Assembly (NCBI RefSeq): GCF_000315625.1
Contig: NW_005434537.1
Coordinates: 80,631-144,630 of the forward strand
Origin: Guillardia theta CCMP2712
Taxonomy: Eukaryota > Protista > Cryptophyta
Direction of reading: 5' to 3'
DNA length: 64,000 nucleotides
Position numbers and translations under genes: made by a program. Positions 14,834 through 58,654 of the stretch are shown here, one piece after another; the stretch's first letter is position 1, and the number at the start of each line of letters is the position of its first letter. Under the pieces are notes generated by a model, which was not told the origin of the DNA, made no database searches, and saw nothing but the letters and a program-made list of their open reading frames with translations.

Positions 14834-16117
14834 TTAAACGCTGAACACCGCCGACTGGGCGATGAGAATGATGGCCAAAAACGCCTTGGAGAACGTGCTC
14901 AGCATATTGTAGGCATACTCCCGTCGGTAACCGGAGGCCTTATTTTCCTCATCCTGGATGAAGTGGAAGTAGATCTGCGCCGCGGCGAAGGTGAAGAAAA
15001 GAACTAACTCGAAAATATAGATAAGGAGTGGAAAGACTGTGTAGCTGAAAAGGTTCTTGTTATTGAGGCAGTTGAATTTCCCCATGTAGTCTCCAAAAAG
15101 GCTGTTGCCGATGTAGAACCATATCATCACGAATAAGTACATCCCGAATAAGAACGCCAGCCCCTTCACGTAATCCATTATCTTCTTCAGGTCCTTCGGG
15201 TCCACCCCCTGTGCCCCCCGTAATGCACTCATCTCACTCCCAATCGTCCTGTAAGCAGGCCTGACCACCGGCCCCTTCTGCCACGGCATGTTAAGCCGCA
15301 CGGGGACGATAACCGCGCTCGTGCGGTCGGAACCCCACACCCCCCTGAATGCCATCTCACTCTCTTCTGTGTTGTTGTTGTATTCTCCGGGCTCGATTTT
15401 CTCATCCGGAATGCTTTCCGTATCCTTCAAGTGGCACTCCTTCGAGGCCACGTAGTCCGCCGCCTCGACGACATACCCTAGGAAGCACATCACCGACTGC
15501 GCAAGGGACACGAAGGTCAGCACCCACACGTCCGTCGTCCCAGTGTAGAGGCAGATCACGATGATCATTGAGGAGGACGAGAGCGCGTACTCGATCCAGC
15601 GATCGTAGCGGGGCAGGCCCTTCTGAAGCGCGTCTATGAATGCACCCAACATGATCGCCCTGTAGAGATCGTGATACAGATGAAGAACAGGATGAAGAAA
15701 CTGACAGGGAAGAAGTACGTCTGCGAAGATCGTGATACAGATGAAGAACAGGATGAAGAAACTGACAGGGAAGAAGTACGTCTCCACCACCCTGGGCTGG
15801 TACATCCAGGGGTCGGAAGAGCCCCACCGCACCTCGTAAGGAGGCGGAGTATTGACACCACAGCGGTCCAAATCAGGATGGCTCCCCGCCTGCGGCACCG
15901 TGATCATGCTGGCATTCCACAGGAGCGGCACCGTGCGCGTCGTCGGGGGTGTGCGGATTCGATTCATCGCCAGAAGGACGATGAAAGCGATTAGAAGGAG
16001 TCCATGAATGAACGCATTGAACAGATTGCGGTTTCTGGAGTACCGCAACCTATCATCTTCTTTTACCTCTGCGCCCTCGAAAGCAAAGATCATCTTGAAA
16101 TCATTCCCCAACCCCAT
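14834..16117 (-). CDS. Heliorhodopsin
   Basis: TM1 NAFIH, TM3 RWIEYALSSSSM..GTTD, TM4 FLGYVVE, TM7 EYAYNMLSTFSKAFL with retinal-binding Lys. Confidence 0.88.
   Translation of the reverse strand: MGLGNDFKMIFAFEGAEVKEDDRLRYSRNRNLFNAFIHGLLLIAFIVLLAMNRIRTPPTTRTVPLLWNASMITVPQAGSHPDLDRCGVNTPPPYEVRWGSSDPWMYQPRVVETYFFPVSFFILFFICITIFADVLLPCQFLHPVLHLYHDLYRAIMLGAFIDALQKGLPRYDRWIEYALSSSSMIIVICLYTGTTDVWVLTFVSLAQSVMCFLGYVVEAADYVASKECHLKDTESIPDEKIEPGEYNNNTEESEMAFRGVWGSDRTSAVIVPVRLNMPWQKGPVVRPAYRTIGSEMSALRGAQGVDPKDLKKIMDYVKGLAFLFGMYLFVMIWFYIGNSLFGDYMGKFNCLNNKNLFSYTVFPLLIYIFELVLFFTFAAAQIYFHFIQDEENKASGYRREYAYNMLSTFSKAFLAIILIAQSAVFSV
15666..15783 (+). repeat. 57-bp direct duplication (period 61) inside the heliorhodopsin gene
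   Basis: agatcgtgatacag...aagtacgtct at 15666-15722 and 15727-15783. Confidence 0.95.
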
Positions 16118-20756: not shown

Positions 20757-21254
20757 ATGCTCGCCTTCGACATCGAGACCATGGGCCTCAGCATGCACCA
20801 CCACGAAATCACTGTCGCCGCCGTCTACGACCCAACCAAGGGCATCCGCCACTGCTACAACTTCTACAGGCACCGCCACGACCGCACCAGGTGGCAGCGC
20901 GAGGTGGACGATTTCCTACGCATCCTCGACGAGGCCCGCACCCTCTGCACCTTCAACGGCATCCGTTTCGACATCCCCTTCATCCAGACACAGTTCAAGG
21001 TCGACCCGGAGAGGGTGGGCCGCTGGGTGCTCAAGACCGTCGACCTCTTCCACCGCTGGAAGCTCCTCCGCGACCACACCTTCTCCCTCGACAAGCTCCT
21101 CATCGCCAACGGCCTCCCCGTCAAGACATCCAAGGGCTGCTTCGCCATCGATATGGCCAGGCAGCAGCGCTGGGACGAGCTTGAGGACTACTGCATGAAC
21201 GACACCGTCCTCACCCACCTCGTCTCGTCCAAGGAGAGGCTCGTCATACCCTGA
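20757..21254 (+). CDS. DEDD/DnaQ-like (RNase H fold) 3'-5' exonuclease
   Basis: ExoI AFDIET, ExoII TFNGIRFDIPF, SLDKL, ExoIII YCMNDT. Confidence 0.88.
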   Translation: MLAFDIETMGLSMHHHEITVAAVYDPTKGIRHCYNFYRHRHDRTRWQREVDDFLRILDEARTLCTFNGIRFDIPFIQTQFKVDPERVGRWVLKTVDLFHRWKLLRDHTFSLDKLLIANGLPVKTSKGCFAIDMARQQRWDELEDYCMNDTVLTHLVSSKERLVIP

Positions 21255-28697: not shown

Positions 28698-30041
28698 GTG
28701 ACAATACAACACAAATTCATCCAAATCTGCGTAATGGGTATAAACGCGAGCCTGATCGGAACGATGGTAGCCAGAGATACGATGAGGAGCGAGAGGCTAG
28801 AGAGCCGAGAGATGAAGAGGAGATGCAATAAAAGGCACACGAGAGATTCTGCACAAGCAATGCATCAGATAAATCCCGACCTAGAAGACATGGATTCGGA
28901 AGAGACGAACGGTGGAAAGAACCTTCAGACAAACTGGTTTAGTCTAAGGAAGGGTTTCATATGCCCTATGACATTGGAGTTTGTGGACAAGGGGATGGAA
29001 GAATGTCCAATACTTCTGGAACGTTTTCAAGAATGCAAGCTTGAATTCAATGAGGGCTTGAAGTATGAGATGAAAGATTCGAATGGAGATATGAAGGTCT
29101 TCAACAAGGCAACCATCGATGGTTGCAAACACTCATTCTTTCCACTTGCACTGGCGATGCATTGGATGATCCACGGGATGAGATGCCCGTTGTGCAAGTT
29201 TGGGGATGACAGGAAGCTCTCTGTGTCCTGCCTTCCATTCCACTGTGCCCACAGGATGAAGAATCAAGTCAGGAAGATCAGGAACGAGATCGACGAAGAA
29301 GTCTTCGAGTCGGATCTTCAACTCGTACAGAACATTAGATTCGAGGACGATATGAACCTCCTGGGCAACATTTCGGGTGAGCACTTCCCTACCGCTATCA
29401 TGCTCGATGTCATTCCATTGCAGAATTGGGATATCATCAATGAGCATATGCAACTATATGTCACCCTTCACTATGAAAGTGATTTGATATCACAGGAGCG
29501 CGTATTGGCAACACTTGGTACACTAGGAGTTACCAGTCAATGGAGGCTCGAACGTTCATCAGAGGAGTCGACGACGTTCACGGTACAAGGTTGTTTATCT
29601 TTATGCGAAGATACTTTGATAATCGACGACCCTACATTTGGATTTATGAACGTTCCTCGTTCCCAGTGCCGCTTGATGTCCAAGATCAATCAAACGACCA
29701 AACCTTCTTACATCAGTTGCAGTCTGGTCTATCAAGATCCGATGATCACATTGAACGTCTGTAAATCGAACGATATCCCAGCCAAGTGCCCTGACAATGG
29801 CACATTGTTCTCCAGCTCGCAACTGATCATGGAAGAGAACGATGAGGCCGTATGCTGTGGATATCTAGAGACACAATGGATGCCGCTGGAGCTCTGCAAC
29901 CCATCCACTTTCGGTTATGGCATATTCTATCAAAGGGTTATTGTGGACAAACAGGCATTCATTACAAGAGTGACAAGGAGTAAGATCATACTGTATCTAG
30001 TTGAAAACGAGATGCTCATGAACGATAACCAGTTCTATTAG
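28698..30041 (+). CDS. RING/U-box-like domain protein (likely start 28734)
   Basis: FICPMTLEF ... GCKHSF ... RCPLCK. Confidence 0.65.
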   Translation: MTIQHKFIQICVMGINASLIGTMVARDTMRSERLESREMKRRCNKRHTRDSAQAMHQINPDLEDMDSEETNGGKNLQTNWFSLRKGFICPMTLEFVDKGMEECPILLERFQECKLEFNEGLKYEMKDSNGDMKVFNKATIDGCKHSFFPLALAMHWMIHGMRCPLCKFGDDRKLSVSCLPFHCAHRMKNQVRKIRNEIDEEVFESDLQLVQNIRFEDDMNLLGNISGEHFPTAIMLDVIPLQNWDIINEHMQLYVTLHYESDLISQERVLATLGTLGVTSQWRLERSSEESTTFTVQGCLSLCEDTLIIDDPTFGFMNVPRSQCRLMSKINQTTKPSYISCSLVYQDPMITLNVCKSNDIPAKCPDNGTLFSSSQLIMEENDEAVCCGYLETQWMPLELCNPSTFGYGIFYQRVIVDKQAFITRVTRSKIILYLVENEMLMNDNQFY

Positions 30042-30084
30042 TGTATTTATTTCAATACATTCAGATAATTATTAAACAATAGTG

Positions 30085-30771
30085 ATGCAGTCATCGAAGA
30101 ACATGTTCTCTCTGCAATCGCTCTGGCAGCAGTGCATAGACGCTGTAGAATTGCTCAGGAGATCCAGCGAAGCAGAGACGGGTGTCTTGAACGAGATAAA
30201 GCTAGAGACTGAGTTAGAGAGGAGATTAAGACTGCTCCATGAGCGCGAGAGGAGGGTTGAGTCGGGTGTAAAGGACATGGACGGCTTCAAAAGGATGCAG
30301 AGATGCAGGGATGCGCTATCGACGCTGGATAGGAAGGGTTGGCCAAGGTCATTCCATCAGAAGGAGTTCCATGACGACTTTCTAAGAGCTTGTGCAAGAT
30401 TGTTTTGGAAGACGGAGCCCAAGGGACAATTCAACAGGGACCATCAAAAGATATTGGAGCTCAATGGATGGGATCATCTTGCACAGGAGATCCTTGTAAG
30501 CACGCCGAGAAGGTTTGGAAAAACAATATCTGTCAGCATGTTTGCGGCTGCTATCATATTCTCGGCCCCGTCCATTGAAGTATCCATTTATTCCACGTGT
30601 AAGCGCATCTCACAGAAGCTGTTGAACAATATCCGGAAGTTCCTCCACCTAATCTACGAAGGGATGGACGCAGAACCCTTCAAGGTGATCCGCTCCAACA
30701 TGGAGGAGATCGTTCTCAAAGGAGACAATGGAAGCCAGGACGTCAGACTCGTCAATTCTTATCCATCCAAG
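30085..30771 (+). CDS. Terminase ATPase subunit, N-terminal (Walker A) exon
   Basis: SFHQ adenine-binding motif, ILVSTPRRFGKT Walker A (cf. herpes VPRRHGKT); ends NSYPSK at AAG|GTAATG; no Walker B or nuclease (ORF stop at 30822). Confidence 0.85.
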
Positions 30772-30823
30772 GTAATGCAGTGTGGTAGTTTAGGTTTTAT
30801 TTACACACTAACAAAATGCTAAC

Positions 30824-32923
30824 CTAATGCAGACAGAACTTGGTATTGACAGGAAGAGAATGGTTCTCAATCTCTTTCAAATCCATCCTTGGGACTACTT
30901 GTACTGCAATCAACTTGTTTCCTATCGTGCAAGTAAATCGGGTTGTCGGTTCCTCCTTCACCCAGGCATCCAACTTCTTCGCCTCGCTCTGCTTCTGTGT
31001 ACCATACACAAGTGGGATGGTGGGCAATGAGATGGGGTAGATAGATGACTTCAGCGGTGGGCTGACGTTCTTTTGAAAGACCTTGATGTAGGGGAGGATG
31101 GGAGGTGTTGCATACGTGGAGATGAGATTGAACTCGTCCATCTCTTCCTTGGATTGATTGATCTTTATGGCCTTGACACGCTCAGCCATCCCTGGCTTAA
31201 TGAGCTCTGATACGGGTATGCCAACCGTCTTTGTGTCGGGTAACATCAACATCTTATCACCAAGAATGCCCCCGATATGCCAAAAGACCCCATCAAGGTC
31301 CTTCATGTGCAGCCATACCTTGGATCTGCCAATGTCCGGGGCACAGTCATTGCAAAGCTGGGAATAGAATAGATCTTCAGTGACCAGATCATCCGATGCC
31401 TTGTTCTTCATAGCAAGCTCCTTCATCATCTTCTTCATCTCGATCACCTTGTTGTAAGAACGTTTCATCTTGTTCAGATCCGCATCCGGGACCCCGTGCG
31501 TAGATGCTTTCCCCGATTGTAACGAGAGCATGTAGACGGGCGCAGTCATCTCGGCCAGGTAAAGATTGCCTTTATGGCTCGTCATGGCAGCGCAATGCCC
31601 GCAGATTTCATACCCCACCCCGTCACCATTGGAGATACTCGACTTCTCCACGTTCGGGGCCTTTGCGCTCATGAGAAGCAGCTGGATACTAGAATCCTTG
31701 ATGTGACTGTAGAGCTGCTTGCACTGGACCAACCCTTTCCGGATGTCCTCTAGAGACCAATCCTGCATGATCGAGTATGATTTGATGGTCCCGGCCAGCT
31801 TCTCGTGATCACACGCCTTGGAAATACGGCTGGCGCTCTGACAGAAGCGATGCGCCATGCCAAAGCAGATCTTGAGTATGCTGGCATCGCCCTCGCAATC
31901 GTCATAGAAGATGCTGTCATGGTAGGACCTCTTGAAACCAGACAAGCCAGCCCCGTCCACCTTCAAACCCCTCGAGATCAAAAGCCTTTTCAGGATCGCC
32001 GCGCTGTAGGCCTTGTCCTCATAGACATTGTCCGACATGGGTGTGCTTATGTCTTCACTCATCTCAAAGGATCCGGTGTTGGGATCCTTCTTGAGATCGG
32101 ATGCATAGGTGATCGCAGTGGACACGTAACAAGGGAATGCGCGCATAAAGGAGTCTGCGGTATTTGCATCAATGACCTCATCGATCCCAACCCCACAGAT
32201 CTTCAGGCATGACATGACCAGGCCGAACGAATCCGCTGGGCAGCCATAGTGATTCTTGATCTTGTTGTCCAATGCATTCTGTAAAAAGACCATGTTTAGG
32301 TCTACCGTGTTGTTCCAAATCGTAAGGCAATCACCAGAAAGCACACCCTCCCTGTGAAATTGGAACCCATTCTGTGTGATCATCTTGGAAGAATCATTGG
32401 CGATCTCGATCATTGCCGCATTCAAGCGATCGACCCTGACCTGATCCAGTGGTTTCAAGCTTGGTAATATAGATTGGATATATCTCGATGTCTGATTGTT
32501 CACACTCTTGTAAGTCGATGCAAGTTCTCTGGGGAGTGCGCACGTTTCCAATATCAGTTTGACGTCTGGCTGTGCGCTGTCAAAGGACTCGGACATGACA
32601 CCCGGCTTTGACTCGATCAAGTCAATGGCACCCAGGCGCCCAGTGGTGATGTGGATATCCTTGATATTCAGACCAAAGCAAAGGATGTTGCTGCCGCTCT
32701 TGATGTCCGGGCCACTGCACATCGCCATGAATTGGATATGCTGTAACTCCATCATGTTGCAATCCGACTCAAAGACAAATACATTGTCCTTGTCACTCAC
32801 CCTCTTGCCTGAAAAGCTGCTGTATGCATTGTGCCATGCAAATAGCTTCGATACCATGTTGCCCGGCCTGCTGTTCTGCATCACATAGGCCCTCACAGCA
32901 AACGCAAATTTATTTTCACTCAT
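30824..32923 (-). CDS. 699-aa protein with transglutaminase-like Cys-His-acid motifs
   Basis: YDDCEGDA ... CGHCAA ... YLAEMT order and spacing. Confidence 0.55.
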   Translation of the reverse strand: MSENKFAFAVRAYVMQNSRPGNMVSKLFAWHNAYSSFSGKRVSDKDNVFVFESDCNMMELQHIQFMAMCSGPDIKSGSNILCFGLNIKDIHITTGRLGAIDLIESKPGVMSESFDSAQPDVKLILETCALPRELASTYKSVNNQTSRYIQSILPSLKPLDQVRVDRLNAAMIEIANDSSKMITQNGFQFHREGVLSGDCLTIWNNTVDLNMVFLQNALDNKIKNHYGCPADSFGLVMSCLKICGVGIDEVIDANTADSFMRAFPCYVSTAITYASDLKKDPNTGSFEMSEDISTPMSDNVYEDKAYSAAILKRLLISRGLKVDGAGLSGFKRSYHDSIFYDDCEGDASILKICFGMAHRFCQSASRISKACDHEKLAGTIKSYSIMQDWSLEDIRKGLVQCKQLYSHIKDSSIQLLLMSAKAPNVEKSSISNGDGVGYEICGHCAAMTSHKGNLYLAEMTAPVYMLSLQSGKASTHGVPDADLNKMKRSYNKVIEMKKMMKELAMKNKASDDLVTEDLFYSQLCNDCAPDIGRSKVWLHMKDLDGVFWHIGGILGDKMLMLPDTKTVGIPVSELIKPGMAERVKAIKINQSKEEMDEFNLISTYATPPILPYIKVFQKNVSPPLKSSIYPISLPTIPLVYGTQKQSEAKKLDAWVKEEPTTRFTCTIGNKLIAVQVVPRMDLKEIENHSLPVNTKFCLH

Positions 32924-33039
32924 TATCTTATGAAATTATTCAATTTGTCCAATAATCTCGATAGTCTTACAATCTCCTTGTTCTTTTTCATGTACGAACA
33001 GGGCCATTCTGAAATAGGTTCATTGGTAAAAGCAAAATC

Positions 33040-33471
33040 CTATTCAGAGTCCGAGCACCCATCAAAATCTTTTCTTTTTTTGCAAAGCATTGCGTCTTTA
33101 TCAGTCTCTAGAGAAGGGGATGATCTCTTTATCTCTATGATAAGCCTGCCAGGACCATCATCAAACTCAGTGTAATAATCGATGTACAGGCCATTCCCAA
33201 TCTCCACTCGATCGTCAACAACGAAATCTCTGGACTTCAACCATCGCGTGGCCATGACTTTCATGCTCAGGTATTCCCTATTCATCATGGTAAAGGATGG
33301 CTGTATACCCAACAGAGGCTCGATCCGTTCGTCGCGCGAAAGGCTTATCGGTATGATATGGTCCTTGATTACTGATTCGATGGTATCAAAATCATCCATG
33401 GCAATATTAAGACTCATCCTGAAGATTGTCTCGCCACGTGGTTTATTCATTTCTATCAAAAACACTTGCAA
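33040..33471 (-). CDS. Hypothetical protein (likely ATG at 33450)
   Basis: ORF conserved in both copies; TATTAAA 26 nt upstream of the ATG. Confidence 0.65.
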   Translation of the reverse strand: MQVFLIEMNKPRGETIFRMSLNIAMDDFDTIESVIKDHIIPISLSRDERIEPLLGIQPSFTMMNREYLSMKVMATRWLKSRDFVVDDRVEIGNGLYIDYYTEFDDGPGRLIIEIKRSSPSLETDKDAMLCKKRKDFDGCSDSE

Positions 33472-33495
33472 ATCTTTTAATACAACGCATGTCCA

Positions 33496-34299
33496 CTAAA
33501 TTTCCATCCGGTCCTCATGAGATAGGTCCTCCATCTTCTTTAACTTTCGGATAAGGTTGGATGTCTTGGGGTGGCGGAAAATCAAGGTATGGTTATTCAA
33601 ATGCCACCATGCATTGACAATAGACAATATGATGAATTCATCACTCTTGTCATTGTTGCTCACGTCTCTGAATAAGCCACGGGTTCTGTAGATCTCGGTG
33701 AAGCATTGTTTAAGATGGATGGGAATGATATGGAAATAGTAGTTTCTGAAACTTACGCCATCGCACAAAGACTGCGCATCCCTGTGTCTTGGTAGGATCG
33801 ACTTTTTCTCCATCAATACATTGAAGAGGCGCTTTACATTCCTAAGATCTGGAATTGCAACTTCCCCTGGAGCTATGGAGAATGCAATTAACTCGTCCAG
33901 TGGAAGTAAGTTTTTTTTCAATGCATGTTGTTGATGTAAAGTCTCTACACCCCCTGACTGAAAACGATTGCATCTCCTCAACCAATTGGTGCATCGACAG
34001 CAGGTTGTAAGACGCTCGTCGCTGTCACAGGTCTTGCAGAGAGATCGGATACACTCCCAAGTAAACGTGGTACTCAACCAGCTGACATCGAGATTCAAAA
34101 GAAATGTCTCGACTCTATGGCTCCTTCTATCCTCCTTGGAAACCAAGAGCATGCCACATATGACACATATATCACACGGCTCCACAAAATCAGGGATTAG
34201 CCTGATGTCAAGGAACGTCACCTCATCCATGCTCACCCCCTGCATCTTCGCACAAATCGATTCAAAAATGTAAAAGTTACTTATGAAAGCACCAAGCAC
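33496..34299 (-). CDS. CxxC-rich (putative zinc-binding) hypothetical protein
   Basis: CVIC, CKTC, CCRC motifs. Confidence 0.65.
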   Translation of the reverse strand: MLGAFISNFYIFESICAKMQGVSMDEVTFLDIRLIPDFVEPCDICVICGMLLVSKEDRRSHRVETFLLNLDVSWLSTTFTWECIRSLCKTCDSDERLTTCCRCTNWLRRCNRFQSGGVETLHQQHALKKNLLPLDELIAFSIAPGEVAIPDLRNVKRLFNVLMEKKSILPRHRDAQSLCDGVSFRNYYFHIIPIHLKQCFTEIYRTRGLFRDVSNNDKSDEFIILSIVNAWWHLNNHTLIFRHPKTSNLIRKLKKMEDLSHEDRMEI

Positions 34300-34475
34300 A
34301 CCTCAGAATATTGACATTTTTTTTAAAAACTTGACATTGTATTTAAGTAAGACTGCCCAGGACTTGGCGTTAAATCGAGTTATAGTAGTATTCGCATTTT
34401 CCACACACCAAACAGTTCAATCACTTTGAAAAGTTCGAAAACTTTAGTCGTTTTTATTCAGTAGCGCGACCCATC

Positions 34476-37055
34476 ATGTCGATGGAAACCAGGAGCAAGC
34501 GATCAACCCCGATTCAGGAGCCTATTGAAACCCTTCAGGGTCATAGGAGCTCAGGCGTCGCGGGTCAGCTTACTATGGGAGACTCCAGACGCGGCAGACT
34601 CAACCCCAAATCGGGTGCAGCGACGTCGAAGGATCAGAAGGGCAAGTCGGGTTCAGCGACATCGAAGGATCAGAAGGGCAAGTCGGGTGCAGCGACGTCG
34701 AAGGATCAGCACCAACCCCCCACCCTTGCAGAAAGGCAAGGGGGCGTGCGTGGTGGTAGACAGATTAAGGCAAAAGGTTTTCCACCCGTCAAGCCTCAAT
34801 CCGAAGGCCGTCAACTCGACGCACCTCCAGGACTCAAAAGTGTCCTTCGCCTTGCAAATAGCACTATGAAAAAGAAGGCTAAAGCCTCTAAGCAGGCTAA
34901 AGCCTCTAAGCAGGCTAAAGCGTCTGAGCAGGTTGAAGAGCCTGAGCAGGTCGAAGAGGCTGAGCAGGTCGAAGAGGCTGAGCAGGTCGAAGAGTCTGAG
35001 CAGGCTGCAGCGTCTTCTAGCAACGCACCTGTAGCTCTTACTGAGCAGCAGATCGAGGAGCAGAAGAAGGCTGATGCAGAGAAGGCGGCTGCTTTGAAGC
35101 AGTTGAAGACTGATCTGATGGCCGAGGCTGTGAAGCTCATCAGTGTGCAGACTTTGCAGGAAGCAAGGGAAATTCTCCTCAATATCCAGCAGATGGCTCT
35201 TCAGCGTGCTGCAACCGACATTGCTGTCAAAATTGATAGCTTGTCCGATGAAGACAAGGCGAAGGCATTTAGCAGCATCCAACGAAGAATCAACTTCTTG
35301 TCCAACAAACCACGCACTCCTAGGAAGGGGCGCGAAGCGGCAGGGGGTGGAGACAATGAGCGCAGAGTTGCAAAGAGGAAGATCGTGGCTAGGAAGGACT
35401 CCGACCATTCGGAACCGGCCGCTCATCGCGTCGTCGTTCGTTTTGACTCTGAGTTTATTACGATCAAAGAAGATGGAAAGGCACTTGGGTTCAAGCAAAA
35501 TGGGATCAACGTGCTCTCGCACTGCTTGAATAAGGACAGTGTCTCCATCCTCAGGCTTCTTGTATTGTCCATGCTGAAGAGAACCGTCTACGCGAATTTC
35601 AAAATTCCCTTGAGTTATTTTTCACCAGAGGATGGGGACTTCACTCCTGCTATCAAGGCTGTCGCAAAACCCCTTATTGAGGGTGGGGAAGCAAAGACTT
35701 TCCTTAGACTCGAGTATAACCTCAACAACCTGTACATCACTCTGCAGCCTCTCGACTTCAAGGTCTTCCATATGTCTACCCTGGTCAATCGTGAGATGAT
35801 CAAGGCCAGTGATGAGGTGTGGGAAAAAGCTCTTGAACTTCAGGGGGATGACAATGATGCAGTGGCTGATGCATCCACCGATAAGTCGAAGAGGCGACTG
35901 GGGAAGCCTGTAGCGGAAGGGAATGTCACGCTTTACAACTTTATCAAGGCGGCCCTCCCTAACCTTAGGTACGAAAAGAGACCGTCCGCCCCCTGCATGA
36001 TGTGCATGATCGTCAACTCGATGATTTCCGTCAATGTTGACAATGTAAACAGACATCGCCAGGCATGGTGCTGCTGCAATCAGACGGACTTGGCTGTCTT
36101 GAGGTGTCCTTTCAAGGACACAACCATCAACTTCACCATCTGCACCCATTACATCACCCTTCTTCACACGGAGAAGTGCGATAACAACGGTGTTATTACC
36201 TGGTGGGAGAATGAGAACCTTCTTCAGACGCTTATCGAAGATTTCCTTCTTATGGACGGACCCGAATCCGACATGCTGTACGCAAGCAACAGCTTTGTCC
36301 CTGTCAGGGCTGAAATCACCGATTGTAACTGCAACCAACGGTGGATCAAGTTCAACCCCGAGAAACGGGCCAACAAGGAAGGAAAGCTCAAAAATCTTGT
36401 GGCTAGATCCAATCTGCTTCAGCCATTCGAGGAGAAGGACGGCGACAAGCACGGTGAGCTCAATAAGTTGTTCAACCAATACTTGGTGTCCTTATTGAAG
36501 AACCCGAAGGGCATGACCAGAAACCCCGTCATGGCCAACAAGAACAAGAACAAGGGAGGTCCAAGGCCGGAGGTGCAGGAGAAGGAGATCCGCTCCGAGC
36601 AAGATATCCCCAAGCCCCCCCGGAAGAAGCAGAGGAGGATCGATTTTTCTTCTGCTCTTGCTGTTGCTGCTTCTGCTGTTGCTGCTTCTGCTGTTGCTGC
36701 TTCTGCTTCTGCTTCTGCTTCTGCTGATCATGCTTCTGCTGATCATGCTGCTGCTATCGCTGAAGAGAAGAAGCGTGCCGATGAGGCACAGGCAGAAAAC
36801 GCAAGGTTGAAAGCTATGCTTGACCAGCTCAAGGCTCAGATTGCCGCGTCTGCGGATGGACCTGTGTCTGGACCTGTGTCTGGACCTGTGTCTGGAGCTG
36901 TGGTTGAGGCTGATGCTGCTTCTGCTGCTGAGCCTGTGGCTGCTGAGCCTGTGGCTAATGCCGAGGCTGAGGCTAATGCCGAGGCTGAGGCTAGCCGTTC
37001 GTCTAGGAAGCGTAAGGCGGATCTTCGCGATGTGCCTAAGAATCCCAAGGAGTAA
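34476..37055 (+). CDS. 859-aa protein with low-complexity repeat arms and a Cys-rich core
   Basis: Peptide repeats SGAATSKDQKGK, KASKQA, EQVEEA, GPVS; CMMC/WCCC core; basic NLS-like stretches. Confidence 0.8.
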   Translation: MSMETRSKRSTPIQEPIETLQGHRSSGVAGQLTMGDSRRGRLNPKSGAATSKDQKGKSGSATSKDQKGKSGAATSKDQHQPPTLAERQGGVRGGRQIKAKGFPPVKPQSEGRQLDAPPGLKSVLRLANSTMKKKAKASKQAKASKQAKASEQVEEPEQVEEAEQVEEAEQVEESEQAAASSSNAPVALTEQQIEEQKKADAEKAAALKQLKTDLMAEAVKLISVQTLQEAREILLNIQQMALQRAATDIAVKIDSLSDEDKAKAFSSIQRRINFLSNKPRTPRKGREAAGGGDNERRVAKRKIVARKDSDHSEPAAHRVVVRFDSEFITIKEDGKALGFKQNGINVLSHCLNKDSVSILRLLVLSMLKRTVYANFKIPLSYFSPEDGDFTPAIKAVAKPLIEGGEAKTFLRLEYNLNNLYITLQPLDFKVFHMSTLVNREMIKASDEVWEKALELQGDDNDAVADASTDKSKRRLGKPVAEGNVTLYNFIKAALPNLRYEKRPSAPCMMCMIVNSMISVNVDNVNRHRQAWCCCNQTDLAVLRCPFKDTTINFTICTHYITLLHTEKCDNNGVITWWENENLLQTLIEDFLLMDGPESDMLYASNSFVPVRAEITDCNCNQRWIKFNPEKRANKEGKLKNLVARSNLLQPFEEKDGDKHGELNKLFNQYLVSLLKNPKGMTRNPVMANKNKNKGGPRPEVQEKEIRSEQDIPKPPRKKQRRIDFSSALAVAASAVAASAVAASASASASADHASADHAAAIAEEKKRADEAQAENARLKAMLDQLKAQIAASADGPVSGPVSGPVSGAVVEADAASAAEPVAAEPVANAEAEANAEAEASRSSRKRKADLRDVPKNPKE

Positions 37056-37164
37056 GTGGTTAGTTTAACCTACTGAAACCACATATAATTTCGACTTTGA
37101 ATTTCGAATAAACTACTATATACAACTAATCTGATGTCACGGCCGGTAGCATAATTGACCGTTA

Positions 37165-37781
37165 AAAGGAAGAATGAGTGATTTTAAAGGGTTGTAGATC
37201 AATTCCTACGGCTTAGCTTGATTCCCATAGGGTTAGATTCAATGTGGGCCTCAAGGTTTTAAATCCCGAGTTGATCGGCTTACAAGCCGGCTGACTGAGT
37301 AGTCTGCACGTGGTCGGTAGAATAAGTGATTGAAAAAAGAGACAATGAGTGGTTTTAAAGGGTTGTAGATCAATTCCCACGGCTTAGCTTGATTCCCATA
37401 GGGTTAGATTCAATGTGGGCCTTAAGGTTTTAAATCCCGAGCCGATCGGCTTACAAGCCGGCTGACTGAGTAGTCTGCACGTGGTCGGTAGAATAAGTGA
37501 TTGAAAAAAGAGACAATGAGTGGTTTTAAAGGGTTGTAGATCAATTCCTACGGCTTAGCTTGATTCCCATAGGGTTAGATTGGATGTGGGCCTTAAGGTT
37601 TTAAATCCCGAGTCGATCGGCTTACAGGCCGGCTGACTGAGTAGTCTGAACGCAGGTGGATGAATAAGTTATTGAAAAAAGGAAGAATGAGTGATTTTAA
37701 AGGGTTGTAGATCAATTCCTACGGCTTATCTTGATTCCCATAGGGTTAGATTGGATGTGGGCCTTAAGGTTTTAAATCCCG
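37165..37781 (+). repeat. 171-bp tandem repeat, second locus
   Basis: Identical to 2741-3357. Confidence 0.95.
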
Positions 37782-37960
37782 GAACTGCACCGGGTGGTCG
37801 CTTATTGCGGCAATGTCCGTTCTACCTTCTTGGTCAGCACATATAGTGTACTGGGGTAAATTTCGTCGTGGAACCCTGCAGACTCACAAGAGCCTAGCTC
37901 TAAGAAATATATATCGATGGTCCTGCTCTCGTGGGGGCAGTGCTGGTTGAAATTTCCTAG

Positions 37961-38855
37961 TTGTCTCGGTCACGTGATGTGTCACGTGACCGGTCAGGTG
38001 AGCCTGTCAGCCGGGTCACGGACCCTGTCAGCCGGCTGACATGTCACGGGCCTGCTGACACGGTCCGCTGACCGGTCACGGCCGCCCGGAGAGATCAGGC
38101 CCCCGGCCAATCTCCGGACACTTAGCCTCCTGGCGGGCCTCCAGGGGGTCTGAGGCGGGGCTGAAGGCTGCAGTCGGTCTACTGACGGGCCCGGCCGGCA
38201 GGATCCGTCGAGAAACAGGGGGGTCAAGGGAGGTTTTCTTCCCCCTGGGAGAAAATTTTTGGGATCTGCGATATAAAAAAGTCTTGTCTCGGTCACGTGA
38301 TGTGTCACGTGACCGGTCAGGTGAGCCTGTCAGCCGGGTCACGGACCCTGTCAGCCGGCTGACATGTCACGGGCCTGCTGACACGGTCCGCTGACCGGTC
38401 ACGGCCGCCCGGAGAGATCAGGCCCCCGGCCAATCTCCGGACACTTAGCCTCCTGGCGGGCCTCCAGGGGGGCTGAGGCGGGGCTGAAGGCTGCAGTCGG
38501 TCTACTGACGGGCCCGGCCGGCAGGATCCGTCGAGAAACAGGGGGGTCAAGGGAGGTTTTCTTCCCCCTGGGAGAAAATTTTTGGGATCTGCGATATAAA
38601 AAAGTCTTGTCTCGGTCACGTGATGTGTCACGTGACCGGTCAGGTGAGCCTGTCAGCCGGGTCACGGACCCTGTCAGCCGGCTGACATGTCACGGGCCTG
38701 CTGACACGGTCCGCTGACCGGTCACGGCCGCCCGGAGAGATCAGGCCCCCGGCCAATCTCCGGACACTTAGCCTCCTGGCGGGCCTCCAGGGGGTCTGAG
38801 GCGGGGCTGAAGGCTGCAGTCGGTCTACTGACGGGCCCGGCCGGCAGGATCCGTC
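37961..38855 (+). repeat. 323-bp GC-rich satellite, block 1 (~2.8 units)
   Basis: Period 323 (pseudo-ORFs recur at 37994, 38317, 38640). Confidence 0.97.
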
Positions 38856-41617: not shown

Positions 41618-43471
41618 CGAGAAACAGGGGGGTCAAGGGAGGTTTTCTTCCCCCTGGGAGAAATGTCCTATGGGTTTTTGGATCTGCGATATAAAAAAGT
41701 CTTGTCTCGGTCACGTGATGTGTCACGTGACCGGTCAGGTGAGCCTGTCAGCCGGGTCACGGCCCCTGTCAGCCGGCTGACATGTCACGGGCCTGCTGAC
41801 ACGGTCCGCTGACCGGTCACGGCCGCCCGGAGAGATCAGGCCCCCGGCCAATCTCCGGACACTTAGCCTCCTGGCGGGCCTCCAGGGGGTCTGAGGCGGG
41901 GCTGAAGGCTGCAGTCGGTCTACTGACGGCCGGCAGGATCCGTCGAGAAACAGGAGATCAGACCCCCGGCCAATCTCCGGACACTTAGCCTCCTGGCGGG
42001 CCTCCAGGGGGTCTGAGGCGGGGCTGAAGGCTGCAGTCGGTCTACTGACGGGCCCGGCCGGCAGGATCCGTCGAGAAACAGGGGGGTCAAGGGAGGTTTT
42101 CTTCCCCCTGGGAGAAAATTTTTGGGATCTGCGATATAAAAAAGTCTTGTCTCGGTCACGTGATGTGTCACGTGACCGGTCAGGTGAGCCTGTCAGCCGG
42201 GTCACGGCCCCTGTCAGCTGGCTGACATGTCACGGGCCTGCTGACACGGTCCGCTGACCGGTCACGGCCGCCCGGAGAGATCAGGCCCCCGGCCAATCTC
42301 CGGACACTTAGCCTCCTGGCGGGCCTCCAGGGGGTCTGAGGCGGGGCTGAAGGCTGCAGTCGGTCTACTGACGGGCCCGGCCGGCAGGATCCGTCGAGAA
42401 ACAGGGGGGTCAAGGGAGGTTTTCTTCCCCCTGGGAGAAATGTCCTATGGGTTTTTGGATCTGCGATATAAAAAAGTCTTGTCTCGGTCACGTGATGTGT
42501 CACGTGACCGGTCAGGTGAGCCTGTCAGCCGGGTCACGGCCCCTGTCAGCCGGCTGACATGTCACGGGCCTGCTGACACGGTCCGCTGACCGGTCACGGC
42601 CGCCCGGAGAGATCAGGCCCCCGGCCAATCTCCGGACACTTAGCCTCCTGGCGGGCCTCCAGGGGGTCTGAGGCGGGGCTGAAGGCTGCAGTCGGTCTAC
42701 TGACGGGCCCGGCCGGCAGGATCCGTCGAGAAACAGGGGGGTCAAGGGAGTGCGATATAAAAAAGTCTTGTCTCGGTCACGTGATGTGTCACGTGACCGG
42801 TCAGGTGAGCCTGTCAGCCGGGTCACGGCCCCTGTCAGCCGGCTGACATGTCACGGGCCTGCTGACACGGTCCGCTGACCGGTCACGGCCGCCCGGAGAG
42901 ATCAGGCCCCCGGCCAATCTCCGGACACTTAGCCTCCTGGCGGGCCTCCAGGGGGTCTGAGGCGGGGCTGAAGGCTGCAGTCGGTCTACTGACGGGCCCG
43001 GCCGGCAGGATCCGTCGAGAAACAGGGGGGTCAAGGGAGGTTTTCTTCCCCCTGGGAGAAAATTTTGGGATCTGCGATATAAAAAAGTCTTGTCTCGGTC
43101 ACGTGATGTGTCACGTGACCGGTCAGGTGAGCCTGTCAGCCGGGTCACGGCCCCTGTCAGCCGGCTGACATGTCACGGGCCTGCTGACACGGTCCGCTGA
43201 CCGGTCACGGCCGCCCGGAGAGATCAGGCCCCCGGCCAATCTCCGGACACTTAGCCTCCTGGCGGGCCTCCAGGGGGTCTGAGGCGGGGCTGAAGGCTGC
43301 AGTCGGTCTACTGACGGGCCCGGCCGGCAGGATCCGTCGAGAAACAGGGGGGTCAAGGGAGGTTTTCTTCCCCCTGGGAGAAAATTTTGGGATCTGCGAT
43401 ATAAAAAAGTCTTGTCTCGGTCACGTGATGTGTCACGTGACCGGTCAGGTGAGCCTGTCAGCCGGGTCACG
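41618..43471 (+). repeat. 323-bp satellite, block 2 (~6 units including 332-bp and deleted variants)
   Basis: Directly visible. Confidence 0.97.
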
Positions 43472-43961
43472 TATTGGAATCAATTCCTGACTCCTAGAGT
43501 CTGTGCACAGATGAATGACTAGTAGAACAGCTCAACAGCTGACTGATAAGTCCAAAGACCAAGACTCACAGATGATGTGCGCACGAAGACACCAATGACT
43601 TTCACAGCCAACCAAACACCTCAGATAACTCAGATCAACTTCCCAACAATCCCCAGCACTTTATTCCCAACACTCGTAGCAGCAAGACCAACCAAACAGC
43701 TTCCCTTCACACACCACCGCCTTACTTCCACCACTGTACGAGTGCTGCCTCTTCGACAGCCGGCGCCTCTTGATTCCTCCGGCGCCGCCTCAGCTTCCCC
43801 AGGCTCCAACCAACCGGATCTTCTAAGTCACAGACTAAGCTCCAGCCCACTAGCTTGGACCTGCAGGCTTCACTTGGTTCACAACCTGATTAGACGCATC
43901 CCTTGAACTTATCGCGTCTGAAAGAACTTCTGAGAGGTTTGTCAGAACCTGAGTTCTTACA
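43472..43961 (-). repeat. Copia 3' LTR
   Basis: Matches 58165-58654 (offset 14693). Confidence 0.95.
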
Positions 43962-45508
43962 CCCTCCCTTTGGGAAGCAAGTCAGAAGTCTGCAACCTTC
44001 TCAGCTTGTCAAAATCATCTGCTTAACAGCTAAGCAGCTGTCCCTTGCGATGTCCTCCTTTCCAACGCTCGCTCAAGCTTTACAAGCTGACTTCCATGCT
44101 GCTCACCTGACCATCAACATCTTTCCCAAGCTGACTTCCATGCTGCTCTCCTCTCCAAGGTCATCTTGCTGCTACCACTCCATCAACCGTTCTGCACAGG
44201 CTCATCCCCCATCTTGCATGCCTCCTGCGCTCCTCCTTCGCTTCAAGTGTGCACCCTGGTGCGCCTGCGTTTCTCCTCCTGTGACACCTGCGCTCCTCCT
44301 CCGCTTGCGCTGCGGATGCAGTGCGGTCGCACCCCGCCAACAGTGCACCTGTGCTGCTCCTCCACCTGCGCTGCGGCTTCTCCCCACCATCGTAGGGCCT
44401 GCGCTGCTCCTCCAGCGCTTGCGCTTCAGCAGCACTCCTGCAGCACCTGCGCTGTCCTCCTCTAGCGCATCCTGATGCTCGTGCACACGGGTTCCTCAGC
44501 TTGTACCATCCGCATGCCACAGAGACGCTCCTCATCCGCCTGCGCTGTCCGCATGCACCTGTGCTCCTCCTCACCTTCCATCATAAACTCTTCCCAGCTG
44601 CCTGCAGTGTCAGCTCAAGACTAAGTCCTGAACACATCTGCATCTTTCAAGTCAGACAGCTCCTCCTCCTCTTCAACCTGATCCTCATGATGGGATTGGT
44701 CATCATGTGACCTCTCTGAAGCTTGCACATTGAGCAATGAAGACATCTCCACCCATTGATGATGCCAAGAATTTAGAATTCCAATCAAGCTCCAGAGATC
44801 AGGTACAGAATTCTTGCAATGCATTGATTGATCTCTGATTGTTTTGAACACAATTTTCTCGTTTCTAATCTATGGGCCCTTTCTATCCTATCTACCCCGG
44901 GGATCATTGTTTTGCCAAGGCACAATCATTTTTGACGTCAGCGCTTTCATTTCAACCACATGACTTATCGATCTCGACTCATCCGTCATTTCTTTCTCAA
45001 TTTTCATTTTTTGGCCATTCAATTTCATCGTTCACTACCGTCATGGGTTCCATAGATCAGGATGAGCGAGTTTCTAAGATACTAACCTAGAACAGATGTC
45101 TTGGTTGCAGCTAGCCACAGGCTTGAGGAAGACGTGTCTGTCTTTATCCTCCTTCCGATTCATCCGATTCCTTCACGTTCTCCATGAGAGTCTCCTCGGT
45201 GACATCACCCGAGACACCCTCCCTGAATCGGATAGAAGACGGAAGACTGACAATTCTCGAGCGACACGGACTCGGTGGCAAGGGTCCGAGACACCCTCCC
45301 TGAATCGGAGAAAAGACGGAAGATAAAGCCTGGAAGCCACCGCAGCAGGATCGGTTGAATCTCCTTGTCGGAGACTGGAACTCGGATCACCGTCAATCAC
45401 ACACGGGGCATACAACTTTGGCGACTGGCGGCATGGGAACAGAGTAGCACTGTCCCTGACAGAAGCGCAGAGAGCATGAAGCGCAGAGAGCATGACAGGC
45501 GAGCATCC

Positions 45509-47593
45509 TCAGAGCAGCATATCCGGTAAGGGGTCTCCGAAGAGAAATTCACCAAGGAGCCTCCACCGATTCAAAGGCAGAACTTTCGTCAGCAAATCAC
45601 CAGGCTGATAAGAAGTATGAATCTTTTCTGGATAGAGCTCGTCCTTTTCTACCAAATCAACAGCATACTTCGTTCGAATATCAATGTGTTTGAGTCGACT
45701 ATAACTGCGCTTGTCCCACAAAAGCCTCAGACATGGTTCATTGTCGATTAGCAAGAGAGTAGGACGAGTCTGCGTAAATCCCATCTGACCCAAGAGATTT
45801 CTATAAAGCTTGACTAGTTTTGCGCATGTGGTGGCAGCATAAATTTCCGCTTCTGAAGAACTCAGGGCAACAACCTTCTGCATTTTTGAACCAAAGACGA
45901 CTACCCCACCATTCAGAACGATTCCATATCCGCTTTGACTCCGTCTCGTAATAATCTCGGTACCCCAACCAGCATCACTGAATGCAATCATCTCATTGAC
46001 AAAACACTCCTGGTGGTAAGATACTCCGTGACAATGGTATACGATCTGAACCTCCCGAGTAGTGTAAAGGTACTGTAGAAGATGAATTAAGGCATCCATA
46101 TCGCACTGCCTAGGAGCCCGAGCAAAGCGACTAAGGACGCTCGTCGCGAATGCGATATCAACCCGCGTACAATTTGCCACGTAGAGAATGGACCCCAGAA
46201 GACTCTGATAAGTGCGGACTTCCTTCTTGTTCAACAACTTACCCTCCAAGTGATAAGTCTTGAGATAGTGACCAGGTAATACCGTTTTGACACCCCTGGC
46301 AACGATTTGAAAGCGTTCAACAATCTTTTCAATGAAATGCTGTTGTGACAAAGTTATCCGACCCTGATCGTCATTCTGTTCTATTTTAATGCCCAAGAAG
46401 GTACCTGTTGCCTCACTCCCCGAAAAGTCGAATACTGTGTTGAGCTTCTCAAGAAACTCAATCTTAACTGCTTCAGTTTGAGAGACAATGAGTAAGTCAT
46501 CCACGAAGACAGTCAGAAGCAAGACGTCCCCCGCACAGTTGGAGTATCGGTAGATGATCTCATCATGTCCTATCCCACTTGCTCCCACCGTCTTCAACAC
46601 CTGCGTGAACTTAAGATACCATCTCCTTGGTGCAATGCGAAGTCCATAGAGCGACTTCAAGACTTTGAGGAGGCACTCAGGAGGAAGACTCATGATATCT
46701 GGAGGAATCAAATACACAGGAACCTCCAAGTCACCATACAAGAAAGCAGCAGAGATATCCCTGAATGTGATTCTCCAACGGTTGCCTGCCGCGATGCTCA
46801 GCAAGAGCCGGATATTGTCCAACGATGTAGTCGGTGCAAACAATTCTTCAGATGAAGGAAGTAAGTTGCCCATGATAACTAGCCGCCCCTTTCGTTTCAA
46901 GATCTTGCCCTTCAAGTCTCGTTTTGAAGCATACACCCACAAGCCGCGAGCAAGGACAGAATGATTTGACTCCCTGTTTTTCTGATCACGCGTAACAACT
47001 TCCCAGACCCCACGACTTTCGATCTTCGCAATTTCCTCCTTTTCAGCCTGCTCCCAAAGATGCCGATCCGGACGACGTAACATCTCTGACCTTGTCTTGG
47101 GATCTGGTAACTTGTCAAAACTACTTTCGTTCTCCACATTTCCTGCATCGCAAGCCGCTGTCATCGCGTAATCTGCCTGATTCTCAGGCATTGCAGCTGG
47201 ATTGTCACGGTCGGAAGACATCAGAGATAACAGGTCAGACGCCAGCTCCACCGCGTCCCATACGGGAGAGACCAACGCTAGATTCGCCACAAGAAGACGC
47301 GTATCCCTGAAAGTAGGGTCCACATTAGCACTGACCTGTGGGGCAGATGACACAGGATCGACATGCTGTAAACGAGTTTTGTACATCTCATCCCTCCATA
47401 CTGGAACAAAACGCTGGGATGCTGGCTGAAGGCTTGTCCTGTCTTCCCCCCTGTCCCAAACATACAAGATCTCTTCAGATTCAGTCGACCCCTGCACAAT
47501 ATGTGTAACTTGCAGATACTGCGAAAATTGCTTGTGCTGGGAAAGTACAACCACTTCAGGCGAACCCCCAACTGTAGCTTCGACAACATCCAT
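45509..47593 (-). CDS. pol: Copia reverse transcriptase / RNase H
   Basis: DISAAFLYG, KSLYGL, FVDDLL, FSDAGW, SSSEAEI, KHIDIR; +1 frame offset from the integrase ORF near 47625. Confidence 0.93.
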   Translation of the reverse strand: MDVVEATVGGSPEVVVLSQHKQFSQYLQVTHIVQGSTESEEILYVWDRGEDRTSLQPASQRFVPVWRDEMYKTRLQHVDPVSSAPQVSANVDPTFRDTRLLVANLALVSPVWDAVELASDLLSLMSSDRDNPAAMPENQADYAMTAACDAGNVENESSFDKLPDPKTRSEMLRRPDRHLWEQAEKEEIAKIESRGVWEVVTRDQKNRESNHSVLARGLWVYASKRDLKGKILKRKGRLVIMGNLLPSSEELFAPTTSLDNIRLLLSIAAGNRWRITFRDISAAFLYGDLEVPVYLIPPDIMSLPPECLLKVLKSLYGLRIAPRRWYLKFTQVLKTVGASGIGHDEIIYRYSNCAGDVLLLTVFVDDLLIVSQTEAVKIEFLEKLNTVFDFSGSEATGTFLGIKIEQNDDQGRITLSQQHFIEKIVERFQIVARGVKTVLPGHYLKTYHLEGKLLNKKEVRTYQSLLGSILYVANCTRVDIAFATSVLSRFARAPRQCDMDALIHLLQYLYTTREVQIVYHCHGVSYHQECFVNEMIAFSDAGWGTEIITRRSQSGYGIVLNGGVVVFGSKMQKVVALSSSEAEIYAATTCAKLVKLYRNLLGQMGFTQTRPTLLLIDNEPCLRLLWDKRSYSRLKHIDIRTKYAVDLVEKDELYPEKIHTSYQPGDLLTKVLPLNRWRLLGEFLFGDPLPDMLL

Positions 47594-47612
47594 GATCTCA
47601 TCCGCTGCACGA

Positions 47613-49330
47613 TCAGAGACAGGGTTTAAAAACTTTGGTATGGTCGGTCATATCACCAAAGACGTTCGGTGGAAAGCTGCACGAGTAATAATCTGCTAAC
47701 ATGCAGACCTCTGATATTGTCTCCCCACTTGTAAGCACCACCATTGCCTTCTGTTCGGTTTGTTCCAAAAACTTGATGTCAGGATCAGTGACAGACCGTA
47801 ACACCCAGTAATTGTCGAGAGTTGGGAAAACAATCCGCGCGAGAAACTTTCCCTCCTTGAAAACCATCTGCAAAATTTTGCCTTGCTCTACTTGACCATT
47901 TACAAGAACTTCGACATCTCGATTGACATATTTGCTTTCCAAGACCCCTCGCTCCGCCTTGAAATCCCTCCGTGTTCTTCTGCCTGCTGGAGGAACTGGA
48001 GACATTGCACCGTCAGGCACATATTCGGTATCATCCCTCAACCGATGCTCTCCTGTATCCTCCCGTTGATCTCCAGATGTCAGGCCTTGGACCGAGGAAG
48101 GTGGAAATTCCAATTGGAGGCGCTTGCTCGCGGAAACTTCACTTGCGTCAGGACCAGAGCCTCCCTGACAGTGTCGCTTCCTGCCAGACGTTGCAACTTC
48201 CTCAGGAATTTGCAATTCTGTTTCACTCGCATTTTCCGAGGAGTCTTCGTCGTCATCAGATGCCACTGGTGCACAAGGTACTAGTTCCTTCAACAATTCA
48301 TCCTCCACATTAGATGCCTGAAAACGTCGGCAACGTAATGGAAAATACAGCTCGTCAAACGTAAGATTATTCGTATGGACGATTCTATCATGCTCGATAT
48401 CCCAAACCAAATACCCCACCTTATATCCAGAGAAAGCGCACGCGTTTCCCAGATTTAAACCATCAATTGCTGGATCATCCACCTTTGACGTGCGTAGTTC
48501 ATTCTTGAAGAAGGTGCTGCACCCAAAAACCTTGAGCTTGCGATAGTCAAACTGCTCGGTTGTATATATCAAGTATGGTGAGGAATACCCTAGATTTCGT
48601 CCACTAGGCAGAATGTTGTACAGTAATACTGCCTGCTGTACGGAATATTCCCATTTGACAGGCCTGGGTACTCCGCTCTGACGTAGTAACGTCCGATGAA
48701 TGGACATTACGCTTCTGATTCCACGTTCAGCGAACGCATTGTAGACCTGAGAGTACTCTGGAATTTTGTCATGTCGTATCCCATGATCAACGAAAAAGCT
48801 CTCCAGCTCCACAGAGCTGAATTCTGAACCGTTGTCAGATACAATCTTCTGTACCTTAGGACGAAAGCTGTCACGATCCTCTTGTAACAGTATTTCCTTG
48901 AGGATAGCAGCCGTCTGACTTTTCGTGCGCATAGGTCGTACTCGCACAAATCCGGAAAAGACGTCCACAATGATCAAGAAATATCTATAACCACCAGGCT
49001 CGGATTGTACAATCACGTCCTTCAAATCAATATGCCAGACTTGATTGACCTCTGATGCCCGCTCCTGTCGGAAATCCGACTGTCGATGGATCGGCCGTGA
49101 GACGAACTTTGCTATTCTACAGGTGTGACAAGGAGATTTCTTTAGGCGCCTGTCGTACGTGATATACTTCACCGAATCGGCTAGTAATTTTTGAATCTTT
49201 GCTTCCAGATGTCCGAGCCGAAGGTGCCAGATGGCCGATTCTGTCGCAGCTGACAATCTGGACTGCTCACACATGTTCTCCTCTGGCTTGAGAGTCACTA
49301 AACTTGATGGACCCCCACTGTAATTATCAC
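47613..49330 (-). CDS. pol: Copia integrase region
   Basis: WHLRLGH, CHTC, HIDL, SDNGSEF, AERGIR, LKVFGC. Confidence 0.92.
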
Positions 49331-49690
49331 CAGCCAACTGTCCTTTCATCCTGATAGGCCTTTGCCTTGCTGCAACAAAGGCCTCCACAGGGGTCCTTTC
49401 AGACGATTGTTGAGACGTCTTTGTGTGTATCGTCTTGTCTTGTTTTGTGTGTGTGTGTGTGAAAGAAATAAAAGAGAGTTAGATCTCCTTCTGTTTCACC
49501 GCTTTCCCTCTTAGTAGAGAAATCCAACGTGAGTTCTTATTGAACTGCGCTTGAAGGTCCACTCGAGAATCTTCGAGGTGTGACATAAAATTGGTAGCAA
49601 GGTTGTGATCGGTGATAGAGATCGAGTCTTCTCTCTCCCCCTCCCTTTCTCCACTGTTCTTCTGCTTCTTCCTACGCTTACGTCGCGTAG

Positions 49691-54739: not shown

Positions 54740-54849
54740 GAATTTTACGTGCTGCGCCTGGAGCGTGTCAGAGGAAAAACAGATTTGACAAGCTGAGAAA
54801 GCGAAGTTTTCTGAGTCCGGAGCACTCCAAGAAAGCGCAGAGAAGAGCG

Positions 54850-55486
54850 TGTCAGAGCTCATAGGAACCGAGCCCGAGTCAGGCAAAGGCCTATCAGGAT
54901 GAAAGGACAGTTGGCTGTCTCGTACTCGTGTTCGAAGCTGACTTCTCCTGGATGACCCAGGATACTCTACTCCAGTGTGAAGCTGCTGAAAGGACCCCTG
55001 TGGAGGCCTTTGTTGCAGCAACCGTGTACCCGTGGGGGACTTACAAGGTAAACAGAAGGGGTGCGTCTTGTGCAGTACGACCCGTTGGAAGCAGCTTGCT
55101 GCCATGCAAGGACGGGGTTCTCTTCCCTGCGAGAGAGCATGGTATCCTCTCGAAGGTCAGAAGGGATGCTTGTCAACTTCCAAGAACAGGACACCCCTCC
55201 TTTCTGTAGCCAAGAGACGGCACCCCTGGCTCATTCCTCGAAGCTATAAAAGGATGAAACTCGTCAGAGCTAGGTGGTCCTCTTCCCCTTTCGTGTGTGT
55301 GTCACGATTGTTGAGACGTCTTTGTGTGTATCGTCTTGTCTTGTTTTGTGTGTGTGTGTGTGAAAGAAATAAAAGAGAGTTAGATCTCCTTCTGTTTCAC
55401 CGCTTTCCCTCTTAGTAGAGAAATCCAACGTGAGTTCTTATTGAACTGCGCTTGAAGGTCCACTCGAGAATCTTCGAGGTGTGACA
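54850..55486 (+). repeat. Gypsy 3' LTR (TGTCA...TGACA; start could alternatively be ~54766)
   Basis: Purine tract before 54850, internal tataaaa and aataaa. Confidence 0.75.
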
Positions 55487-57964: not shown

Positions 57965-58164
57965 CTTGGAGTTACCAATACCGTTCCAAAAAAATGAGTA
58001 ACAGCGTACAGTACAACAACCAGGAGCCTTAAAGAGCCTTCAAACTCGTTGTCAATTCGACGCACAAAGACCAAGAGCCCTTTAACTCGTTGTCCTTGGA
58101 ATCTTATCGTAGAGTCTTTTTGTATTCCTTTGTTCGTGAATACAAAAAAAAAAATTTCTTTTTG

Positions 58165-58654
58165 TATTGGAATCAATTCCTGACTCCTAGAGTCTGTGCA
58201 CAGATGAATGACTAGTAGAACAGCTCAACAGCTGACTGATAAGTCCAAAGACCAAGACTCACAGATGATGTGCGCACGAAGACACCAATGACTTTCACAG
58301 CCAACCAAACACCTCAGATAACTCAGATCAACTTCCCAACAATCCCCAGCACTTTATTCCCAACACTCGTAGCAGCAAGACCAACCAAACAGCTTCCCTT
58401 CACACACCACCGCCTTACTTCCACCACTGTACGAGTGCTGCCTCTTCGACAGCCGGCGCCTCTTGATTCCTCCGGCGCCGCCTCAGCTTCCCCAGGCTCC
58501 AACCAACCGGATCTTCTAAGTCACAGACTAAGCTCCAGCCCACTAGCTTGGACCTGCAGGCTTCACTTGGTTCACAACCTGATTAGACGCATCCCTTGAA
58601 CTTATCGCGTCTGAAAGAACTTCTGAGAGGTTTGTCAGAACCTGAGTTCTTACA
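58165..58654 (-). repeat. Copia 5' LTR
   Basis: Matches 43472-43961. Confidence 0.95.

Follow-up and report, generated by a model that had tools for sequence, protein, structure and literature searches.

Outside two orders, the large terminases of mirusviruses are mostly trans-spliced (Medvedeva et al., Nat Microbiol 11:228; PMC12768974), a description that PMC13595911 repeats. In such split genes, that of Mirus_G_0318 for example, a canonical splice donor closes the Walker A half, the Walker B motif as well as the nuclease is encoded elsewhere, and the tails that read through the donor are random; the splice site differs by clade, some sites match those of alloherpesviruses exactly, and the trans-spliced cases include halves on opposite strands (PMC12768974). 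The authors' response to review (supplement file 7 of that paper) sets out exactly such a puzzle. In orthoherpesvirus UL15/UL89 the split falls in the loop that precedes Walker B, and other genes occupy the gap (PMC3079670; PMC13595911); alloherpesvirus terminases consist of several distant exons, with three ORFs in SalHV-1 (PMC13030845). Mirusviruses have also been linked to cryptophytes, through the associated clade E03 and through capsid homologs in three cryptophyte assemblies (Zhao et al.; PMC10827195).

The element described here probably belongs to this herpes-related type of virus of single-celled algae, and the gene in question is that for the DNA-packaging enzyme. Within the stretch of 64,000 nucleotides that we analyzed (the window), a plus-strand ORF of 245 codons (30085-30822) comprises 229 codons (30085..30771) that the modeled fold identifies as the half of a large terminase that carries Walker A, hereafter exon 1, followed by a nonconserved tail of 16 codons and a stop (30772..30822), which doubles as the 3′ untranslated region of a convergent gene. 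The original prediction held that terminase similarity stops at NSYPSK, in AAG|GTAATG at 30772 and in phase 0, and the 229 codons indeed end there: the last residues, CCATCCAAG, lie directly 5′ of GTAATG (30772..30777, plus strand; G of GT at 30772), a phase-0 spliceosomal donor that is conserved in related loci and whose partner acceptor is missing from the window. The roughly 50 AT-rich nucleotides and convergent 3′ end expected to follow are also present; the next 52 nt are 33% GC and contain the end of the convergent gene, with an AATAAA on the minus strand at 30796. That gene (30824..32923, minus strand; 699 amino acids) belongs to no known family, giving no Pfam match, a best Atlas value of 0.80, which is under the useful range, and no tblastn match among 95 loci. 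The nearest plausible acceptor, two copies of CTAAC and a CAG at 30808..30832 on the plus strand, would close a 61-nt intron at 30832 and leads, as anticipated, into 66 residues unrelated to terminase. Because this CAG is the antisense of the convergent gene's last codons, and because the product is not a terminase, we regard the site as probably a decoy.

Sequence searches of Pfam and PDB with exon 1 failed to recognize a terminase, weak terminase rows appearing only once, and the fold and the unsplit relatives were therefore needed to identify it. An AlphaFold2 model built from 47 sequences (pLDDT 89) finds its closest structural match by VIA in orthoherpesvirus UL15 (HSV-1, 6m5r_A; Z 10.9, rmsd 3.2, 156 aligned residues), with residues 63-229 of the model placed on 148-340 of the UL15 chain; matches 2-5 are four phage terminases (Z 8.1-9.5). 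In Foldseek terminases are among the top ten PDB rows, none at E ≤ 0.001, and the BFVD matches are pieces of herpesvirus and phage terminases, headed by a 314-residue protein of an alloherpesvirus, Ranid herpesvirus 3. Less split relatives, at 35-44% identity, occur in 15 viral-contig loci, 13 of which read in one frame through Walker B and the nuclease, while two have short introns slightly later. A profile of these relatives retrieves T4 gp17 and UL15, and through them STPRRFGKT (30499..30525, plus strand) aligns with the Walker A motif of both. Like the large terminases (TerL/UL15), exon 1 has a Walker A motif within a TerL-type fold; Walker B and the RNase H-like nuclease are absent from the window and form a separate exon in relatives. 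The nearest relatives of exon 1 are gene models of Hanusia phi (86%; placed by tree), with Baffinella models further out, a cryptophyte link in common with clade E03, although that clade is defined by its capsid protein (PMC10827195) and the element in the window is recognized from terminase and heliorhodopsin only. Compared with the cases in PMC12768974, exon 1 has no internal intron, its nearest relatives are cryptophyte gene models rather than metagenome bins, and it is known from DNA only, whereas joined RNA is reported there.

Comparison with homologous sequences indicates that the donor, placed after Walker A and ahead of Walker B, is real and conserved. A search with exon 1 gave 1032 matches of similar length and 13 longer ones; we checked the 13 and the best 120 of the 1032, 133 N-half proteins in all, one of them the window's own. 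The end motif occurs in 132 of the 133 and is followed by V (GTN) in 127 and by Walker B in none (with a narrower pattern the two counts are 130 and 125). Among 143 further representatives, 75 reach the end motif, and the next residue is V in 71, I in three and A in one. At the DNA level, the same codon is followed by GT in 71, GC in two and AT in seven of the best 80 of 429 metagenome loci (one extra spurious match left out), a set that includes near-duplicates and so does not represent 80 independent cases. All seven AT loci have a GT four bases further on and fall in a single clade (L045, L052, L055, L078, L080, L086 and L090; FastTree 0.993). They read K-I-G|GT, so placing the donor 4 nt downstream, in phase 1, past residues that open exon 2 elsewhere; the offset has the appearance of a junction shift, and this would then be a clade in which the terminase junction moves. 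In the seven nearest relatives, identity over the last 160 residues of the exon amounts to 123-159 positions, against 1-4 of 9-16 in the read-through tails, which argues that the end of the exon is more than chance; one relative retains 159 of the 160 although its N-terminus and tail have diverged. A canonical donor that is conserved through the lineage and ends the Walker A half is the mark of the split mirusvirus terminase, and exon 1 carries it.

Both halves are visible in four of the 80 loci, exon 2 always being downstream on the same strand and 0.19-3.3 kb away. It lies at 2,519 nt in L053 and at 3,313 nt in L082, with ORFs between and with CTAAC and AG just 5′ of its start, IGTTKGTGGDVLILEEAA; in L049 and L032 it is a 16-nt micro-exon about 190 nt away. 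The junction of the relatives reads YPSK|IGTTKG, exon 2 opening with I/V-x-T-T-K-G-T-G-G-D after the acceptor and continuing to Walker B and then the nuclease. The expectation that exon 2 would begin with xRG is contradicted by this xxTTKG opening. Exon 1 and exon 2 put end to end are in exact register with the unsplit relatives, whose gapless reading is YPS-x-x-x-x-LRGxGGD. A protein search with the second half yielded 1060 matches, limited to 102-326 residues so that fused forms could not show; among the best 120, the start motif is found in 71, preceded by Q (CAG) in 64 and by R in one and lying at the called protein start in six. The second half also exists as a gene model of its own in a cryptophyte genome, that of Guillardia theta (P0342). 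Within the 190-nt intron that leads to the micro-exon, L049 (10547-10619) and L032 (1184-1256) carry a tRNA gene (UAU anticodon) that begins 7 nt past the terminase donor, and in L049 the start of the micro-exon is duplicated at 10894.

No Walker B or nuclease exon was expected to be recognizable in the window, and none was found on either strand by HMM (best E 2.1 and 1.3) or by tblastn (best E 0.087 and 0.029). The span searched takes in 30 kb upstream and 33 kb downstream of exon 1, with 397 N at 2145-2541, on a contig that exceeds the window. A micro-exon scan of the window gave three AG-led I/V-x-T-T matches (7442, 10674 and 17257), none continuing with KG. Exon 2 is likewise missing in eight of nine related loci with at least 9 kb of downstream sequence.

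The exon boundary had been predicted to be herpesvirus-like, and alignment with UL15/UL89 sustains this for the loop before Walker B and not for the exact site. K229 falls on UL15 residue 340 by structure and one residue later by the sequence profile, which is ungapped at the junction and makes K229 the fifth residue before RG in UL15; exon 1 of HSV-1 UL15 ends at what we take to be residue 343 (junction 343/344). In the relatives, four residues separate the junction from the K/R-G that follows in the pre-Walker-B motif. The second exon of orthoherpesviruses starts two residues before RG, judging by the duck enteritis virus acceptor, which was mapped by RT-PCR and reads S-L-R-G in our translation (PMC3079670); the donor printed in that paper has a TGA in phase 0 and misfits its acceptor, which limits it as a source. 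With the herpesvirus position as taken here, the split in the window is in the same loop as that of UL15/UL89 and 2-3 codons upstream. Exon 1 ends in phase 0 but not at the site two residues before RG, so that its intron position is not identical to that of UL15/UL89; the offset, seen in the structural and profile alignments, calls for caution over a single ancestral intron of mirusviruses and orthoherpesviruses. After the junction, the mirusvirus-type relatives have TTKG where orthoherpesviruses have x-I/L-RG. An intron of the UL15/UL89 type, a few kilobases long (about 3.5 kb in herpesviruses) with nested genes and removed in cis, is not found within 33 kb downstream of exon 1; L053 and L082 do have one. 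The passages on terminases in PMC13030845, PMC12031113, PMC8787488 and PMC12326992 give no junction coordinates.

The reading we favor, with a probability of about 0.68, is that the window holds exon 1 of a split mirusvirus-type large terminase, likely joined by the host spliceosome, and probably in trans, to a separate exon for Walker B and the nuclease. The exon 1 transcript would leave at the conserved donor, in phase 0 after NSYPSK; a distant exon 2, presumably elsewhere in the genome, would open with I/V-x-T-T-K-G in phase 0; and the host spliceosome would join the two into a complete terminase. That the second exon is distant or joined in trans was part of the original prediction, and the conserved donor and the match with the published mirusvirus arrangement (PMC12768974) lend it support. 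We infer trans joining from the distance, since the halves would be over 33 kb apart, separated by genes on the same strand, a 15-kb LTR element and four AATAAA sites, and from the published cases. Counting against it, the four relatives with both halves all fit ordinary cis splicing, which weighs against assuming trans joining for the whole lineage. Those relatives also lend some substance to cis splicing over one very long, gene-containing intron, built like that of UL15/UL89 though exceeding 33 kb, or stretched afterwards by retroelement insertions: L053 and L082 have genes between same-strand halves, a single LTR-bounded insertion (43471-58654) makes up some 15 kb of the 33 kb downstream, and the contig runs past the window (the longest contig carrying the exon 1 protein is 191 kb). 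Such an intron is nevertheless unlikely, given the more than 33 kb without exon 2, the several same-strand ORFs and four AATAAA sites in its path, and the opposite-strand halves among published cases (PMC12768974). Published joined reads alone do not, as we see it, separate trans splicing from a very long cis intron where the halves share a strand.

The nested LTR retroelements, tandem arrays and duplicated blocks of the window mean that this copy of exon 1 may be a silent endogenous one, its donor inherited from a split viral gene and the copy unexpressed or its partner exon lost. We consider such a relic improbable, since the exon is intact, with 159 of the last 160 residues identical to a relative diverged at its N-terminus and tail, and since neighboring genes are present in contigs of three probable RNA runs. 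Farthest from the evidence, and very improbable, is the proposal that each half is translated on its own and the two come together as proteins, or that exon 1 is spliced to 30832 to make a short nonpackaging protein. The in-frame stop at 30822, the CTAAC and CAG 61 nt from the donor, and the six of 71 second halves that begin at a called protein start are what it can point to, but a CAG-type Q precedes 64 of the 71, there is no conserved start, the conserved GT would serve no need, the cut falls inside the ATPase fold ahead of Walker B, and the product from 30833 is not terminase-like.

No RNA record is listed for 29800-31400. Of one raw RNA run, about 6% was scanned and 12 reads were placed, none of them on exon 1; together with three probable RNA contig sets it covers the neighboring genes and places nothing on 30276-32849 except one stray read, a result that says nothing on splicing or silence. 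Between post-donor and pre-acceptor sequence in L053 and L082, RNA pairing gave no signal (29-96% of controls were as stable; longest complement 8 nt). Rfam matched nothing resembling an snRNA at the gathering threshold in the window, L053, L082, L049 or L032, and at E ≤ 2 gave only sub-threshold chance rows (L053 at 10.5-15 kb, L082, and the window at 28-44 kb). AAAAGTC is not present after the window's own donor. In the metagenome loci it occurs within 150 nt after the donor in 21 of 76, compared with 3 of 558 after other stop codons, often in several copies (L053, L082, L043, L048 and L073, for example) and in at least two clades; L053 and L082 also have AAAGTC 50-70 nt 5′ of their exon 2 acceptors.

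The terminase half that ends at a donor in the window is real, and the split is, as a phenomenon, already published for mirusviruses (PMC12768974); since it has been both published and reviewed, the locus adds little in that respect. A bolder proposal, which we hold to be doubtful though worth stating, is that the element is a mirusvirus active in a cryptophyte-type alga that can be cultured, that its terminase halves are truly trans-spliced, and that its lineage holds the whole series of short intron, gene-filled intron of 2.5-3.3 kb, distant halves and 4-nt donor shift, AAAAGTC being a candidate pairing cue in the clades that have it close to both ends. If active and trans-spliced, it would bring into the laboratory a process known to date from metatranscriptomes alone. 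Joined short reads cannot settle cis versus trans for same-strand halves; long-read RNA could do so, provided that the host is an alga in culture.

Among genes that bear on a mirusvirus, only two are recognized in the window, the terminase and a heliorhodopsin-domain protein (14834-16117, minus strand; PF18761, E 3e-12), and a heliorhodopsin gene is often carried by mirusviruses. For each of two genes of no named family, one of 249 amino acids (33496-34245, minus strand) and one at 20757-21254 (plus strand), four related loci have a homolog close to the terminase half. The LTR-bounded 15-kb element (43471-58654), which has Ty1/copia-type genes and identical direct repeats of 491 nt, is inserted in a 322-bp tandem array and is itself interrupted by a Ty3 chromodomain element (183-nt repeats at 49403-49585 and 55304-55486). 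Duplicated blocks (1-2144 = 32179-34331, 99.4%; 2543-3537 = 36967-37961, 100%) flank the 397-N gap and could be a recent duplication, a terminal repeat or an assembly artefact. Together, the heliorhodopsin, Ty1- and Ty3-type retroelements, duplications and tandem arrays fit an element that is endogenous or persistent. At 29375-29495, inside the 435-residue ORF upstream, 119 nt with GT..AG ends are absent from one contig of a probable RNA run, possibly a minor intron.
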